DNA of 64,000 nt from an uncultured Poribacteria bacterium (GTDB lineage: Bacteria > Poribacteria > WGA-4E > WGA-3G): NCBI GenBank assembly GCA_951813565.1, contig OX638351.1, positions 2,688,001 to 2,752,000 of the forward strand, read 5' to 3'. A program made the position numbers and the translations under genes. Below the pieces are notes generated by a model. That model did not search any database and was not told the DNA's origin. It worked only from the letters and a program-made list of their open reading frames with translations. Each line of letters starts with the position of its first letter. Within the stretch, counting starts at the first letter, position 1. Shown piece after piece: positions 2,517 to 9,364 of this stretch.

Positions 2517-2545
2517 TTGAAATCAGTTGTATAATAGGGTATACT
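2517..2545 (+). promoter_or_regulatory. Sigma70-type promoter of barrel paralog 1
   Basis: TTGAAA-N17-TATACT. Confidence 0.65.
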
Positions 2546-2621: not shown

Positions 2622-3350
2622 ATGAAGATCAAAGTACTTCAGTTAACCTTTATCTTTCTAATGATCTGTATAATTTCCGTTGCCGCCCCTTCCGCTGTCT
2701 TTGCAGACGCACATGAGACTGAAGGGGAAATGGCGCCTGAAGCCGAAATGGCAGAAGAAAAACCAGGTGTTTCAGGGTGGTTCCAAGTTGATGTTGATAG
2801 TTTAGGGACGTATTTCTTGATTGGTGCCAGCCATCCGATTGGCGGTGTCTCAATCGCTTCTAACATCTATGTCAATGATCATCTCGGCGAATTTGACCTC
2901 GGTGTCTCATTACCCGCAGTGAAAAGTGACAGTGTGTCACTTGATTTGGTCCCGATGCTCGGAGTTGGGTTTGACTACACTGGAGCGGATGGTCCCGATG
3001 CTCTATTTCCGCAATTTTTTGCTTTTCTGACCACACCTAAAATCTATTTTTTTCACTGGACCATTGGAACAGTTTCTACGATATTTGATGATACCGCTGT
3101 CAACGAACTCTACACCCGTAATTTTCTCACATATTCCATAAACGATACCATCGCTATTGGTCCGCAGGCTGAAGCAGTTTTCGTTTTTGCTGATGAGCTG
3201 GATAAACCTCTGAAACTAAATTTCGGTGGACGCATTAACATCGGCTACGGAACAGCTAATTTACTCGGTTTATACATCGGGTATGAAACAAAGAAAGAGG
3301 AAGGGGAAACTGGTCTTACGGGTAGAATGAATTTCACTCGTTTCTGGTAG
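2622..3350 (+). CDS. Putative outer-membrane beta-barrel protein, paralog 1
   Basis: Signal peptide ending AVFA, amphipathic beta-strand pattern, aromatic C-terminus (NFTRFW); paralog of 5154..5885. Confidence 0.7.
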   Translation: MKIKVLQLTFIFLMICIISVAAPSAVFADAHETEGEMAPEAEMAEEKPGVSGWFQVDVDSLGTYFLIGASHPIGGVSIASNIYVNDHLGEFDLGVSLPAVKSDSVSLDLVPMLGVGFDYTGADGPDALFPQFFAFLTTPKIYFFHWTIGTVSTIFDDTAVNELYTRNFLTYSINDTIAIGPQAEAVFVFADELDKPLKLNFGGRINIGYGTANLLGLYIGYETKKEEGETGLTGRMNFTRFW

Positions 3351-3368
3351 TACAAATTCGAAAATAAG

Positions 3369-3389
3369 GGCGCGGTTACAAGCCGCGCC
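3369..3389. terminator. Hairpin between convergent genes
   Basis: GGCGCGG-N7-CCGCGCC. Confidence 0.55.
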
Positions 3390-3393
3390 ACCT

Positions 3394-4815
3394 CTACTCC
3401 ACCAAATAAATATGAATTGTTCTATCTTTTGCCCGTGAGAACGCTGGTAACGTTTCTATCATGCGTCCTCGTTTGCGAATCCAATTACGAACAGTCATAT
3501 CCGCATCAAAGACGTTAAAACTCGCCACGTCTACGATAAACCATATTCGTTTACCATCTGAACTTTCCCATTCTTTCTCAAAAGATACTTTATCCTTTAC
3601 CAATTTGTCAACGTCAATCGATTCCGATGTTGGCATATAATACCTTGTCATTTCTGGTTCTGATAGTACCAATTGATCGGTTGGTTTGCGCTTAACTTTG
3701 ATAACTTCAAATGCCTCCCTCCATTTCGGTCTACCACCATTTTCAAATCGAAAGTAGAGATAATTTTGAGATAACAATACAACAATGAGCAGGCAAGGAA
3801 GCAGGGCCTTGAACAAGTTATATTTGTCCGCAGTTACTGCTTCCCAAAGATAAGTACATGCAACTGCGGCAAGGATAAAATAGGCAGGTGTTGTCCAAAA
3901 CAGATAATAGCCCGCTACATTCTGAAACTGAGACGCTATGAGGAGAAGCACCAACGGCACGCCAGCGAAACACATTAAAAATCGAGTAGCACGATCATGT
4001 GGATTTACGATAGCAGCAAAAAAAGCAGTAACGGCTATCGGAATGCTAACCCCTTGGACAAGTGTGAGAACAATATAGATAGGACTCCGTCCCCACTCAT
4101 TGTGTCCCCACCCGGAAGATACGTAGCCGCGAATCTGTGGGAGGGCAAGCATTAGGACAGGTAGAGCAAATGGTACAAAAAATAGAAGCAGATTTATCCA
4201 TCGCTTTCGGTTACGTTCTTCTAACAGCCGAAGTGTTGCATAGACCGCCAACGCAGGCACGATTGCTGCAGCAAGCAAGTGCGACAAGATAAGGCAAATA
4301 CAGGAAAAGAGCGCACATATTGTTAATAACGTTGAATCGTTTTCAAGGGAGCGATAGAAAAACCATGCTGTCAATGCAGCAAAAAGAAAAGTGAAGATAT
4401 ACGAACGCGCATTTTGCGACCAAAATAGATGCCAGCTTGACAAGGCAACAAATGCCGTTGCCAATAATCCTACTCTGCTATTGTATAAGGTCTGCCCCAA
4501 ACTAAAGATTATCGGAATTGATAGAATACCTGCAATACAAAAAATTAGACGGTTATCCCATTCCTCCCCTCCCTCAATCAAAAATGATAACTTCTCACTT
4601 ATAAAAACGGAAAACTTCGCTGCGATATAAGGTATTGGATTAATTGGAGAATTGGAAAGAGAAAATTCTTTGGCATCCAGTACTGTCAGAACTTCGTCAA
4701 TCCAGAAACTCCACTGTCCCAGAGACCAAAACCGAAGGAGTGCCCCGATACTGACTATACAGATAAGCAAAATATGCCTATTTTTTAGGCAGTTTTGTGA
4801 TGAAAATTTCAGCAT
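3394..4815 (-). CDS. GT-C fold (GT39/ArnT-like) membrane glycosyltransferase
   Basis: SFWIDE motif after first TM helix, SQNARSY motif, many TM helices. Confidence 0.85.
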   Translation of the reverse strand: MLKFSSQNCLKNRHILLICIVSIGALLRFWSLGQWSFWIDEVLTVLDAKEFSLSNSPINPIPYIAAKFSVFISEKLSFLIEGGEEWDNRLIFCIAGILSIPIIFSLGQTLYNSRVGLLATAFVALSSWHLFWSQNARSYIFTFLFAALTAWFFYRSLENDSTLLTICALFSCICLILSHLLAAAIVPALAVYATLRLLEERNRKRWINLLLFFVPFALPVLMLALPQIRGYVSSGWGHNEWGRSPIYIVLTLVQGVSIPIAVTAFFAAIVNPHDRATRFLMCFAGVPLVLLLIASQFQNVAGYYLFWTTPAYFILAAVACTYLWEAVTADKYNLFKALLPCLLIVVLLSQNYLYFRFENGGRPKWREAFEVIKVKRKPTDQLVLSEPEMTRYYMPTSESIDVDKLVKDKVSFEKEWESSDGKRIWFIVDVASFNVFDADMTVRNWIRKRGRMIETLPAFSRAKDRTIHIYLVE

Positions 4816-4983
4816 TTTTAGCAGAAAATGATCTCCTCAAACTATGTAAATTTACGGACTATTTACCGGCACTCTATCTAACTGTATGAAGGTTATTGTA
4901 AGGATGCGTCTAATGTTGGTCTTATGCCAATAAGGCATCAAACCTTCACATCAAATTACATAATGTTTGCATCATAACACAAT

Positions 4984-4999
4984 TGGCACGCATATTGCT
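4984..4999 (+). promoter_or_regulatory. Sigma54 (-24/-12) promoter
   Basis: TGGCACGCATATTGCT matches TGGCACG-N4-TTGCW; lies upstream of barrel paralog 2 and amt genes. Confidence 0.85.
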
Positions 5000-5153
5000 T
5001 TAACTGAGGCAGTGCAACTAAGCACAGATTCTATCACAAGTTGATGCCGCGTTCAATAAAAATTGGGCAAGTTGAGTTTCTCAAACTGGCACACAACTTA
5101 TTCTGGCACAACATAAGTAGTGCTTGAATTATTATTCTATTAAGGAGATTTTA

Positions 5154-5885
5154 ATGAAAATTAAAGCGTTTTGGTTACCCCAATTATTGGCAATAGTTTG
5201 TATCCTTGCAGTTGGTAGTGTCCCGATGGTTTACGGTGATGCTCACGAAGCGGGTGAAGAGATGGAAATGGAAATGGAAATGGAAGAAGAGTCAGGTGTT
5301 TCCGGTTGGTTCCGGACCGATACAGATAGTTTAGGAACACAAATCTGGGTTGGTGCAAGCCATCCGGTTGGAAGTATCTCTATAGACAGTGATATTTATG
5401 TCGTGGATACCTTCGGTGAGTTTGACCTCGGTCTCGGTATTCCAGTTGCAGACAGCGACAGTCTGTCACTCAGTTTTCTTCCCATGGTTGGTATTGGATT
5501 TGACTACGGCACAGCGAATGGTCCAACAACATTGATTGCACCGCAGTTGTTCACCTATCTTACCGCTGGTTCCATCTATTTTGAATCGTGGATCCAAGGT
5601 TTTTTCAATTCGCCTTTTGATGAAGAGGGGGCAGATTCGCTCTATACACGCGATTTTATTCTCTATTCTATCAATGATACCGTTGCTATCGGCCCACAAG
5701 TTGAAGCGACAATTGATTTAGGTGATGATGGCGGACTCGGAAGCCTCGTTGTTGGTGGACGCATCAATCTCGGCTACGGTGAAAATAACACGCTTGGACT
5801 CTTTGTCGGTTTTGAAACCCAGCTTGAAGAAGATTCGGAAGATACGGGAATAACGGGTAGAATGACGTTCGTCCGCAGTTGGTAA
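5154..5885 (+). CDS. Putative outer-membrane beta-barrel protein, paralog 2
   Basis: RBS AAGGAG before ATG 5154; signal peptide; EMEMEMEM tract from a GAAATG microsatellite; C-terminus TFVRSW. Confidence 0.7.
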   Translation: MKIKAFWLPQLLAIVCILAVGSVPMVYGDAHEAGEEMEMEMEMEEESGVSGWFRTDTDSLGTQIWVGASHPVGSISIDSDIYVVDTFGEFDLGLGIPVADSDSLSLSFLPMVGIGFDYGTANGPTTLIAPQLFTYLTAGSIYFESWIQGFFNSPFDEEGADSLYTRDFILYSINDTVAIGPQVEATIDLGDDGGLGSLVVGGRINLGYGENNTLGLFVGFETQLEEDSEDTGITGRMTFVRSW

Positions 5886-6066
5886 AGGATATATTTGTGA
5901 GGACAGTAGGTTTGCTGTCCTTTGCGTAGGTTAAAATCATCGCGAATCAGAAAAAGCGCTTGATTCGCGATGTATCCAAAATATTATTGAACACGACGAA
6001 ACGGATGTAAACTCTCAGTTCCCAGAGTTCTAAGAAGCAGTTTTATTGAAATATAGGAGATTTCAA

Positions 6067-7497
6067 ATGAAAAAAGTGGTTATAATAACGGTTCTGATCT
6101 TAACCTGCCTACTAAGCCTAAATGCTTTTGCCTTGAATGGAAATGTTGATGACTTGGAAGCTGAAGGTGAAAAGGTAATGGCTTACGAAGGCACTCCGTA
6201 TGAAAAAGAGATGGTTAAGATTCCAGCAGGAAAATATAGCGCAGACACGCTGTGGGTACTTGTCGCTGCATTCCTCGTTTTCTTTATGCAGGCTGGTTTC
6301 GCTATGGTGGAATCTGGATTCACACGTGCCAAAAATGCTGTCAACATTCTCATGAAAAACCTCATGGACTTCTCAATGGGTTCAATCGCTTATTGGGCAA
6401 TCGGTTTTGCCATTATGTTTGGTGCTGGTAATGCATTCATGGGAACAAGTGGTTGGTTCGTCCCAGCTGAATCCGGCGTGTTTAGTTCGTTAGAGTGGAG
6501 TTCTGTTCCAACACACGCGGCATGGCTCTTCCAACTTGTTTTTGCTGCAACGGCTGCGACTATTGTTTCCGGTGCTATGGCAGAACGAACACAGTTCAAA
6601 AGTTATCTGATTTATAGTGTTTTTATCACCGGTATCATCTATCCGATTGTTGGTCACTGGATTTGGGGTGGCGGTTGGTTATCAAGTCTGGGCATGTCCG
6701 ATTTTGCTGGCTCAACAGTCGTCCATTCAACAGGCGGTTGGCTTGCATTGACAGGAGCTATTGTCTTAGGACCGCGGCTCGGTAAATATGATAGCGAAGG
6801 CAAACCGAGACCTATTGCTGGTCATAACCTGCCACTTGCAGCACTTGGTGTCTTTATTTTATGGCTCGGTTGGTTCGGATTCAATCCTGGAAGTGAAATG
6901 GGCGCGAATGCAGGAGCTATTTCCAGCATCGCAGTAACTACGAACCTCGCAGCTGCTGCAGGTGCTATTACAGCTATGATTACTGCATGGATATTTCTTG
7001 GCAAACCTGATGCAGGCATGTCCCTTAACGGTGCGCTCGCTGGGTTGGTAACAATTACTGCTGGTTGCGCTTCCGTTAGTCCGACATCCGCTGCTATTAT
7101 GGGTGCACTCGGTGGTATCGTAGTTGTTTTGAGCGTGCTGTTGTTAGAACGTTTCCGAATTGACGATCCTGTCGGTGCTGTCTCTGTTCACGGTACGTGT
7201 GGTGCTTTAGGCACACTCCTACTTGGATTTTTCCATAGCAAGCAAGGCATTTTCTATGCACACACAGTACTTACAAAAAATCCTGATACCGTATATGGGT
7301 TCGGATTTCTCTGGGCACAATTCGTCGGTGTTATCGCTGTTCTGGTATGGTGTCTCGTTACTGGGTTTATTCTCTTCTATGCAATCAAAGCGGTTACTGG
7401 CTTGCGGGTTACACAAGAAGAAGAACAAGCAGGTCTTGACTATGAAGAACACGGTGCAAGTGCCTATCCGGACTTTAATGTTTCATCCATACGTTAG
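6067..7497 (+). CDS. amt: Ammonium transporter (LVFFMQAGF-type Amt)
   Basis: DFAGSTVVH, WFGFN, DDPVGAVSVHG; both pore His present; RBS AGGAG before ATG 6067. Confidence 0.95.
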   Translation: MKKVVIITVLILTCLLSLNAFALNGNVDDLEAEGEKVMAYEGTPYEKEMVKIPAGKYSADTLWVLVAAFLVFFMQAGFAMVESGFTRAKNAVNILMKNLMDFSMGSIAYWAIGFAIMFGAGNAFMGTSGWFVPAESGVFSSLEWSSVPTHAAWLFQLVFAATAATIVSGAMAERTQFKSYLIYSVFITGIIYPIVGHWIWGGGWLSSLGMSDFAGSTVVHSTGGWLALTGAIVLGPRLGKYDSEGKPRPIAGHNLPLAALGVFILWLGWFGFNPGSEMGANAGAISSIAVTTNLAAAAGAITAMITAWIFLGKPDAGMSLNGALAGLVTITAGCASVSPTSAAIMGALGGIVVVLSVLLLERFRIDDPVGAVSVHGTCGALGTLLLGFFHSKQGIFYAHTVLTKNPDTVYGFGFLWAQFVGVIAVLVWCLVTGFILFYAIKAVTGLRVTQEEEQAGLDYEEHGASAYPDFNVSSIR

Positions 7498-7545
7498 ACA
7501 TATTTTCAGATAACCTTCAATTGGAAGATTCAAGGTTACAAACTC

Positions 7546-7618
7546 AAAATAGGGTGCCCATAAGAAGTTTACTTATATCCCTGAGTTTTACTTCTTGGCT
7601 TATGGGCGTTCCTATTTT
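7546..7618 (+). terminator. Long hairpin between the amt genes
   Basis: AAAATAGG.GCCCATAAG ... CTTATGGGC..CCTATTTT inverted repeat. Confidence 0.6.
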
Positions 7619-7852
7619 ACTGTTTGTATGGCGTTATCTTGTTTTGCCGTTGATTGTAATCACTTGAAACCTTAATGTTATTCTGATAGAATGCTAAATC
7701 AATACTCGTAGAAGTTAGACCCTTTAAGAAGCGTTAGTAGGACGGATAATTTTTTTCTTCAAATTGAAATTGGAAGGTGGACAAGGTTGTCTACCTTTAT
7801 AGAAAATAACTGAACAAGTACCATCACTTGTTTAATACTAAGGAGGATACAG

Positions 7853-9265
7853 ATGCAACAAAGATGTGCATCGCATTGGACAAGGAAGCGTTTTAGTTAC
7901 GCATTAATTGGAACGCTCATACTATTTTTATTGATATCTGGTGTGTCAAGTCTAATTCTGACACAAGATGTGTTTGCAGACCAGCATGAGACAACTGAAG
8001 TGGAGGCAGAATCATCACTCAATTCCGGTGACACCGCTTGGATGCTAACTTCAACTGCACTCGTGCTGTTTATGACTATTCCGGGACTCGCGCTCTTCTA
8101 CGGGGGACTTGTGCGCGTACAGAATGTACTCTCTGTGCTCATGCAGTGTTTCGCATTGACAGGGATTATCACAATCTTATGGATTATTATTGGGTATAGT
8201 CTTGCTTTTAACACCGCTGGCATGGTGAAAGGGACAATTACATTCAACTCTTTTGTTGGAGGACTCGGTACATTTTTCTTGACAGGTATCGGCGTAGAGA
8301 GTTTATACGACGACAATATTCCCGAAACAGTTTTTGTTACCTTCCAGTTGACGTTTGCGATTATCACACCGGCACTGATAGCCGGGGCATTCGCTGAACG
8401 GATGAAGTTCTCTGCGATGTTGATTTTCTCTGCAATCTGGTCGTTAATTGTTTATGCTCCTATATGCCACATGGCATGGGCAAACGCCGGCGTTGGTGGT
8501 GCCTTATTTGGTGATATTATCGGTGCCCTTGATTTCGCTGGCGGAACCGTTGTGCATATTAACGCAGGGATCGCGGCATTAGTTGCTGCTATATTGGTTG
8601 GAAAACGACTCGGTTACCAGACAACAGCGATGCCACCACATAGTTTGACGCTAACTGTCGTCGGGGCATCAATGCTTTGGGTCGGCTGGTTCGGTTTCAA
8701 CGCCGGTAGTGCTGTTGCTGCTGATGGTACTGCAGGTATGGCGATGCTCGTGACGCAGATTTCGACTGCTACTGCTGCTGTCACATGGATGTTCATTGAA
8801 TGGGGCAAACACGGCAAACCGAGTGCCTTAGGTATTGTTACAGGTGCTGTTGGAGGATTAGTTGCAATTACACCTGCTTCAGGCACAGTTGGTCCGATTG
8901 GTGCGCTTGTTATCGGATTCGTCTCCGGTGCTGTCTGTTTCTGGGGTGCAACAAGTTTAAAAGCGAAACTCGGTTATGACGATTCGCTTGATGCGTTTGG
9001 TGTTCACGGAATCGGTGGAATTGTCGGTGCCTTGTTGACAGGTGTTTTTTCGGCTACAGTTTTAGGTGGTTCTGAAGATATAATGATTGGAAGTCAGCTC
9101 TGGGCACAGTTCCTTAGCATTGTTATCACTATTGTTTGGAGTGGTGTGCTTTCGTTCATAATCCTTAAAATCGTTGATGCAATAGTCGGTTTACGCGTTG
9201 AAGAGGACGATGAACGCATGGGTCTTGACCTCTCACAGCACAACGAACGTGGTTATAACCTCTAA
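7853..9265 (+). CDS. amtB: Ammonium transporter (AmtB type)
   Basis: LVLFMTIPGLALFYGG, DFAGGTVVHINAG, DDSLDAFGVHG, C-terminal GLDLSQHNERGY. Confidence 0.95.
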   Translation: MQQRCASHWTRKRFSYALIGTLILFLLISGVSSLILTQDVFADQHETTEVEAESSLNSGDTAWMLTSTALVLFMTIPGLALFYGGLVRVQNVLSVLMQCFALTGIITILWIIIGYSLAFNTAGMVKGTITFNSFVGGLGTFFLTGIGVESLYDDNIPETVFVTFQLTFAIITPALIAGAFAERMKFSAMLIFSAIWSLIVYAPICHMAWANAGVGGALFGDIIGALDFAGGTVVHINAGIAALVAAILVGKRLGYQTTAMPPHSLTLTVVGASMLWVGWFGFNAGSAVAADGTAGMAMLVTQISTATAAVTWMFIEWGKHGKPSALGIVTGAVGGLVAITPASGTVGPIGALVIGFVSGAVCFWGATSLKAKLGYDDSLDAFGVHGIGGIVGALLTGVFSATVLGGSEDIMIGSQLWAQFLSIVITIVWSGVLSFIILKIVDAIVGLRVEEDDERMGLDLSQHNERGYNL

Positions 9266-9289
9266 ACGAGGTAAAATTCCTAACAAGAA

Positions 9290-9314
9290 TAGGCGCGCTT
9301 ATAAAGCGCGCCTA
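9290..9314. terminator. Hairpin between convergent genes
   Basis: TAGGCGCGCTT-ATA-AAGCGCGCCTA perfect stem. Confidence 0.65.
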
Positions 9315-9364
9315 CAAATAGATAGAGGCAGGCGGGAAATTCTGTCTGTCCAATTTTTACCAGA

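Follow-up and report, generated by a model that had tools for sequence, protein, structure and literature searches.

General porins are usually assumed to let ammonium through the outer membrane when nitrogen is limiting, and the locus described here raises the question of what an exported protein does when its gene stands directly in front of ammonium transporter genes. The locus lies in a 64,000-nucleotide stretch (the window) of the genome of an uncultured Poribacteria bacterium (GenBank assembly GCA_951813565.1, contig OX638351.1, positions 2,688,001 to 2,752,000, forward strand); coordinates below are window positions unless a genome position or another locus is named. The gene order is trpF, por1 (2622..3350, + strand, 242 amino acids), a PMT_2 gene on the opposite strand, por2 (5154..5885, +, 243 amino acids), and the ammonium transporter genes amt1 (6067..7497, +) and amt2 (7853..9265, +). 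por2 starts with an ATG that follows an AAGGAG site, and close homologs of por1 and por2 are annotated "hypothetical protein" in Candidatus Poribacteria. On balance, and with modest confidence, we favor the view that por2 is a cation-favoring diffusion channel, induced by the nitrogen regulation (Ntr) system, that increases the amounts of ammonium and small amines available to Amt in the periplasm.

As the preliminary description of this DNA had claimed, por1 and por2 are paralogs (49% identical in an alignment of 245 columns, E 1e-78) that both end in Trp, and a signal peptide with a basic N-region, a hydrophobic stretch and cleavage before DAHE can be recognized by eye in each. The closed barrel that its porin proposal requires is also supported by the AlphaFold2 model of mature por2, whose residue numbers are used throughout: the model has 12 strands, with a predicted local distance difference test score (pLDDT) of 94.1 and a predicted template modeling score (pTM) of 0.85. 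Foldseek matched it to outer-membrane barrels at a template modeling score of about 0.55, and the best match of a wide structure search was VhGalP (Z 18.0, root mean square deviation 3.1, 180 aligned residues), with KdgM (Z 17.3), the intimin barrel (16.4), NanC (16.4), COG4313 (16.2) and FapF (16.0) as further matches. Sequence identity to these structures is 7-12%; the matches point to a shared 12-stranded architecture and not to a family assignment. por2 is predicted to be a 12-stranded outer-membrane barrel, and por1, to judge from its full-length identity to por2, would be one likewise; the host genome holds seven Omp85 matches over the cut-off.

The 20 residues ahead of strand 1 of por2 are acidic, and the COG4313, FapF, intimin and autotransporter barrels come near the KdgM score (Z 14.6-16.4). 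Both observations would suit a barrel plugged by its N-terminal tail, which, like COG4313 and FapF proteins or autotransporters, might serve hydrophobic uptake, secretion or anchoring. In COG4313 proteins (Pput2725, TcpY, SphA), the N terminus is reported to occlude the lumen, and a hydrophobic cargo has been proposed (PMC4493636). COG4313 and FapF plug their lumen, whereas the tail of por2 is modeled with low confidence (pLDDT about 60) and is unconserved, varying across the family from near absence to some 100 residues rich in Pro, Ala and Glu, and no hidden Markov model (HMM) of these barrels matches the family. Since, in addition, neither por1 nor por2 has a passenger domain, the lumen of por2 appears to be highly polar and the operon partners move hydrophilic solutes, we consider a plugged barrel very improbable.

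A pointer to a role in nitrogen uptake is the position of por2 as the first gene behind a conserved sigma-54 -24/-12 motif (4984..4998, +), the consensus promoter of the preliminary description. Such a motif lies within 700 nucleotides 5' of por2 in 46/46 orthologs and within 330 nucleotides in 48/51 loci, a count in which some genomes appear twice; by comparison, the host genome has 89 such motifs, and 20 of its 4288 open reading frames have one within 330 nucleotides upstream. Within the same distance, the motif was found at none of 31 usable por1 loci (one match, at L052, lay at the locus end and was excluded as a slicing artefact), at none of 17 zinc-side loci of Poribacteria families 2 and 3 and at neither of two thiamine pyrophosphate (TPP) loci of family 4. 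The linkage to amt proved equally constant in a neighborhood survey that covered 46 genomes of the window's taxonomic family, drawn from the 108 with a match plus the present genome. In all 46, amt directly follows por2; six lack amt1 and have the amt2 type in its place. An order of perfect sigma-54 motif, barrel gene, amt and glnK recurs independently outside Poribacteria on a contig of a Sandaracinaceae bin (L141), which is possibly misbinned.

The host genome has two members of the barrel family, por1 and por2, and two amt genes, both of which exceed the PF00909 and TIGR00836 cut-offs and contain both His-bearing motifs, presumably those of the twin-His arrangement. The order and the Amt family assignment of the preliminary description thus hold; its "amtB" is a nearest-model label only, as amt2 scores 448 bits against the PRK10666 cut-off of 657, and the nearest subtype of amt1, TIGR03644, is likewise under its cut-off. 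A sigma-54 motif of the kind seen at por2 also precedes glnA, which is followed by two PII genes, and nasT, an ANTAR response regulator gene leading a nitrite/nitrate assimilation cluster; rpoN and eight enhancer-binding proteins are present in the genome. In the nasT unit (genome positions C1:1702294-1708716), ANTAR hairpins and a terminator-like hairpin are followed by what we take, from their sequences, to be genes for nitrite reductase, a nitrate transporter and a nitrate reductase-like enzyme.

Because por2 stands behind a conserved sigma-54 motif and directly ahead of amt, the protein is probably produced when nitrogen is limiting. The motif would then drive the por2-amt unit as a co-transcribed whole under Ntr control; ammonium and other small cationic nitrogen solutes would enter the periplasm through the probably acid-lined pore of por2 and would be taken up from there by the Amt proteins. 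The acidic lumen is deduced from strand alternation rather than from coordinates, by which 11 Asp/Glu and four Arg/Lys residues (all four Arg) of por2 would point inward. Thirteen of the inward positions (R26, D28, D30, Q35, W37, D52, E61, D63, E116, W118, R138, E156 and R208) are invariant in 46/46 por2 orthologs and in the three amt-linked members outside Poribacteria, and both groups keep Q120 as well. The mean inward charge is -6.5 in the por2 orthologs and -8.0 in the three amt-linked outside members.

The synteny-defined orthologs of both paralogs are highly expressed in sponges. Jahn et al. (2016) mapped three sponge metatranscriptomes on a Poribacteria single-cell genome (PMC5087111), and in the rows of that data set the orthologs can be assigned by synteny and length, not by sequence. 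The presumptive por2 ortholog, a 738-nucleotide "hypothetical" gene with two amt genes on one side and a PF13231 gene on the other, has a mean of 689 fragments per kilobase of transcript per million mapped reads (FPKM; row 302 of 4771), above the 417 and 362 of the neighboring amt genes, and the presumptive por1 ortholog, a 729-nucleotide gene after trpF, has 845 (row 226 of 4771), which places both synteny-defined genes within the top 5-6%. The same rows give 13366 for PII and 3603 for glutamine synthetase (PMC5087111).

The family to which both proteins belong is wider than the ammonium context. A profile search retrieved 161 clusters when the threshold was E<=0.001 and 130 when it was E<=1e-10, and 99 sequences were aligned, so that the family comprises about 130-160 clusters at 50% identity, none covered by a Pfam or NCBIfam model. 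Across the phylum, 147/176 genomes have a match: 108/111 of the window's taxonomic family, mostly with two copies, 10/11 and 25/29 of two other families, mostly with one copy, 2/7 of a fourth and 1/17 beyond. The copies of families 2 and 3 lie divergent from a cluster of His-rich lipoprotein, MerC, ATP-binding cassette (ABC) ATPase, FtsX and DUF3299 genes, which we take to be of zinc-uptake type, in 16/17 loci, and the remaining locus is cut at the contig start. Regulation of these barrel genes by zinc was considered and rejected: a Fur/Zur-like palindrome occurs in 5/12 spacers, all of family 2 (L025, L027, L028, L032 and L036), close to the zinc cluster. Since the palindrome is more than 400 nucleotides from the barrel gene, which has a sigma-70-like site of its own, the zinc link is taken as synteny and not as demonstrated co-regulation. 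In family 4, the copies belong to a TPP-riboswitch operon with an ABC permease, the barrel, an NMT1/THI5 binding protein and thiO- and thiG-type genes (2/2 loci). These operon members (L034:6149-7840 and L038:6139-7826) are candidates for a channel that would pass a thiamine precursor through the outer membrane.

Beyond Poribacteria, the family occurs sporadically, with matches in 8/401 Myxococcota genomes (six candidates scored per genome). The outside count rests on 30 loci, from which L105, L106, L108, L109 and L089 were excluded as Poribacteria of the window's family. Besides the sigma-54 operon of L141, amt lies divergent from the barrel gene in L094 and 1.2 kb upstream of it in L098, whose member branches next to Poribacteria; in L107, the barrel gene follows an allophanate hydrolase gene, and the remaining loci have pilB-pilT, speA, kinases or other unrelated neighbors. 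The preliminary description had coupled the whole family to nitrogen, a claim that is not supported as it stood: the TPP operon, the zinc-cluster side and the many unrelated contexts indicate that the family, taken together, is not nitrogen-specific. It is probably a reusable small-solute channel, whose members stand, depending on the lineage, in uptake units for ammonium, urea/allophanate or a thiamine precursor.

Several observations weigh against an ammonium channel at por2 itself. Because of their kinship, the 46 genomes amount to a single event and not to independent ones, and amt adjoins the barrel gene in only 3/30 loci outside Poribacteria, where many contigs are short. Families 2 and 3 run sigma-54 motif and amt with no barrel gene between them (five genomes examined), which means that Amt can do without the channel; five genomes of families 2-4 have amt genes without a family member beside them, and two family-2 genomes keep the PMT_2 gene, the sigma-54 motif and amt with no barrel. 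No conserved NtrC-type enhancer was recognized by eye in the 110 nucleotides upstream in the 46 por2 leaders. The sigma-54 motif also stands 5' of what are, judging by sequence, presumably dnaK, clpB, groEL and hsp20, and is therefore no proof of nitrogen control; these chaperone motifs suggest, as an observation in its own right, a sigma-54-driven heat-shock control in Poribacteria. With respect to the pore, the four conserved arginines of por2 face inward as well, and 26 outside members without a nitrogen neighbor mostly keep the por2 residue set, with a mean inward charge of -5.9, as do the two TPP-operon members. The acidic set is the consensus of the family irrespective of nitrogen neighbors and does not single out ammonium.

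Such facts would suit a general small porin without substrate preference, of which por2 would be the copy that is induced by nitrogen starvation and raises the permeability of the outer membrane to any small nutrient. The varied gene contexts, the equal pore residues of members with or without nitrogen neighbors, the near-universal presence in three Poribacteria families and the high expression of both copies all speak for this explanation, which we rate as rather unlikely and yet as one to be taken seriously. What speaks against it is the dense set of invariant charged and aromatic inward residues at 25-50% identity, which suggests a defined binding track, together with the repeated location of family members in single-substrate uptake units and the substrate specificity described for solved 12-stranded uptake channels (PMC4849052). 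An Ntr-induced channel for ammonium and small amines stays our preferred reading of por2.

For por1, the preliminary description had proposed a constitutive copy behind a sigma-70 promoter. A sigma-70-like -35/-10 site with 10/12 matches is indeed present (2517..2545, +), and similar sites were seen by eye 5' of about ten other por1 orthologs; as a class, however, matches of this kind do not stand out from chance in the region (19 found, 15.0 expected). If ammonium or amines were the substrate of both copies, with constitutive expression of por1 and starvation-dependent expression of por2, one would expect just such a site, the lack of a sigma-54 motif and the proximity of por1 to the por2-amt operon, which it adjoins in many genomes. 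The high expression of its presumptive ortholog (PMC5087111) and its retention of D28, D30, E61, D63, R138, E156 and R208 are also compatible with this arrangement. We nevertheless judge it improbable. In a quick, unrooted tree, por1 and the copies of families 2 and 3 share a long branch away from por2 with a Shimodaira-Hasegawa-like approximate likelihood-ratio (SH-aLRT) support of 100. Most por1 orthologs (n=31) carry R26Q, Q35Y, W37L, D52N, E116F and Q120I, and the families-2/3 copies (n=18) carry Q35H, W37L, D52N, Q103H and E116K. Moreover, por1 tracks trpF, which is found within three genes upstream in 26/32 loci and is kept in 6/8 loci where por1 is unlinked from amt. Several pore residues that are retained in por2 and in the amt-linked members outside Poribacteria are missing from the por1 clade, and por1 is probably no plain constitutive twin; it appears to be a derived copy of sigma-70 type, with a remodeled and less acidic pore and probably with another or a broader substrate.

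Known families offer little guidance. por1 and por2 have no relevant Pfam or NCBIfam match, and searches of PDB sequences by protein or by profile yielded nothing at E<=10. The preliminary description had noted that some proteobacterial glnK-amtB operons begin with a putative porin of TorF/NlmA type, a presumed grouping, and had found the present proteins not recognizably related to it. This judgment holds at the level of HMM matches to TorF/Gcw_chp (PF09694, TIGR02001), which matched neither por1 nor por2 at E<=0.1 and none of 99 family members at E<=0.01. PF09694 was also absent from a scan of the host genome for which a positive control was registered, and an hhalign comparison of the two families gave a probability of 0.2%, with a TorF side of only seven sequences and an effective number of sequences (Neff) of 3. 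In the Atlas, clusters that are part Gcw_chp scored 0.94 with few shared features, and no TorF protein was among the listed matches of the fold search, which leaves a shared fold possible. TorF genes also follow atzF (allophanate hydrolase) or precede ABC transporters, the slots that the barrel genes of L107 and L034 occupy. In Herbaspirillum seropedicae, the gene of an exported protein leads the NtrC-dependent nlmA-glnK-amtB operon, and NlmA is placed "most probably in the periplasm" in the account given there (PMC3023670). por2 resembles nlmA in heading a sigma-54 amt unit; the Herbaspirillum operon contains glnK, whereas the por2 operon does not, the PII genes sitting with glnA.

By architecture, the closest counterparts are the small monomeric porins KdgM, NanC and VhGalP (PF06178), which are 12-stranded barrels as well, with about 200 residues and short loops (Z 16.4-18.0; Atlas score 0.94). 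The pores of KdgM and NanC are basic, in contrast to the net acidic pore that por2 appears to have. Identity is 9-11%, PF06178 matches none of the 99 members, and no sugar-acid genes accompany the barrels here, whereas porins of the KdgM/NanC type are described as carrying acidic sugars (PMC4849052). The nearest named Atlas clusters (0.95-0.96) belong to DUF6733 (PF20507), which may be a remote sister family: 5/99 members match it weakly (best E 8.5e-4), although por1 and por2 themselves gave no match, and neither did 251 Myxococcota genomes, in both cases in scans with no positive control registered. A profile of distant family members retrieved four proteins, none of them DUF6733, and no functional description of DUF6733 was found in the open-access literature.

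The DNA around por2 has further features. The best-conserved block of its leader lies on the opposite strand (5028..5056, -; 42/46 genomes), is of the extended -10 sigma-70-like promoter type and points toward the PMT_2 gene (PF13231; 3394..4815, -), a conserved neighbor that is membrane glycosyltransferase-like by family match and divergent from por2. The sigma-54 and reverse sigma-70 motifs thus stand face to face at 4984-5056; transcripts from them would overlap, and transcription of the PMT_2 gene would cross the sigma-54 box. In the sponge rows, the PF13231 gene reaches 284 in the sample with the lowest por2 value (567) and 27 and 48 where por2 has 825 and 676 (PMC5087111), an inverse pattern that is only a hint, because n=3 and the por1 value falls in that sample as well. 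Hairpins at 5010-5140 show by eye apparently compensatory or G-U-tolerant changes across relatives. A riboswitch or other structured RNA in the leader was rejected after no Rfam match was obtained at the gathering threshold or at E<=5, and so was ANTAR control of por2: the dual A..G-hexaloop hairpins, which are visible in the spacer after nasT as a positive control, occur neither in the por2 leader nor in the por2-amt1 spacer.

Other features frame the transcription units. Between por2 and amt1 lie two hairpins (5901..5972, +), with no T-tailed terminator among those listed, and an extended -10 sigma-70-like site precedes amt2 (7664..7692, +). A similar site occurs in 20/32 amt2 loci and a sigma-54 motif in 0/32, so that amt2 probably has a sigma-70 promoter of its own. 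Terminator-like hairpins follow amt2 (9289..9315) and, as a GC-rich element, separate the convergent por1 and PMT_2 genes (3369..3389).

In a family-4 genome (L147:8346-9395), a BBP2 barrel gene lies 3' of amt behind its own sigma-54 motif. A bolder interpretation would make por2 a dedicated ammonium/amine channel and the outer-membrane partner of Amt, with the Asp/Glu/Trp/Arg track as selectivity filter. The present family, TorF and BBP2 would then be three unrelated barrels recruited to one slot, and the facing sigma-54/sigma-70 pair would act in sponge symbionts as a switch that favors either nitrogen uptake or a surface glycosyltransferase; we think this combination unlikely.

Some relatives of por1 and por2 deserve mention for their own sake. 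In Polyangiaceae, the family is tandemly duplicated next to pilT (L084:2286-4219, L100:993-3006), and in L082, L083, L086 and L087, the barrel gene is divergent from pilB-pilT; in three of these four loci, pilT is followed by a gene for a BBP2-type porin. A member at L095:4142-4864 lies among short genes of unknown type (ThiF, DUF6847) on a contig resembling a mobile element or phage, and no homolog was found on the plasmids searched. The most distant Myxococcota homologs (L137:3724-6848, L138 and L139:6015-9184) directly follow the gene of an 840-850-residue protein with a RoxA-like cytochrome c motif in 3/3 loci scanned; L142 looks similar, and a porin-cytochrome pair is possible. In several relatives, the gene is split near residue 140-160 (genome tblastn, six genomes), probably through assembly frameshifts.

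Neither a description of the por family nor a characterized ammonium-specific outer-membrane channel was found in the open-access literature. New here are the derived por1 clade and its altered predicted pore, family members in TPP and zinc contexts, the sigma54-barrel-amt-glnK operon outside Poribacteria, the face-to-face promoters and the expression rows for the por1 and por2 orthologs. A barrel family that Pfam and NCBIfam models do not cover is thereby named, and two of the most expressed "hypothetical" genes in a major lineage of sponge symbionts gain an annotation. The conserved pore of por2 and the remodeled pore of por1 form a natural control pair, and the family provides a small, highly expressed and, by prediction, well-folded candidate for an outer-membrane ammonium channel.

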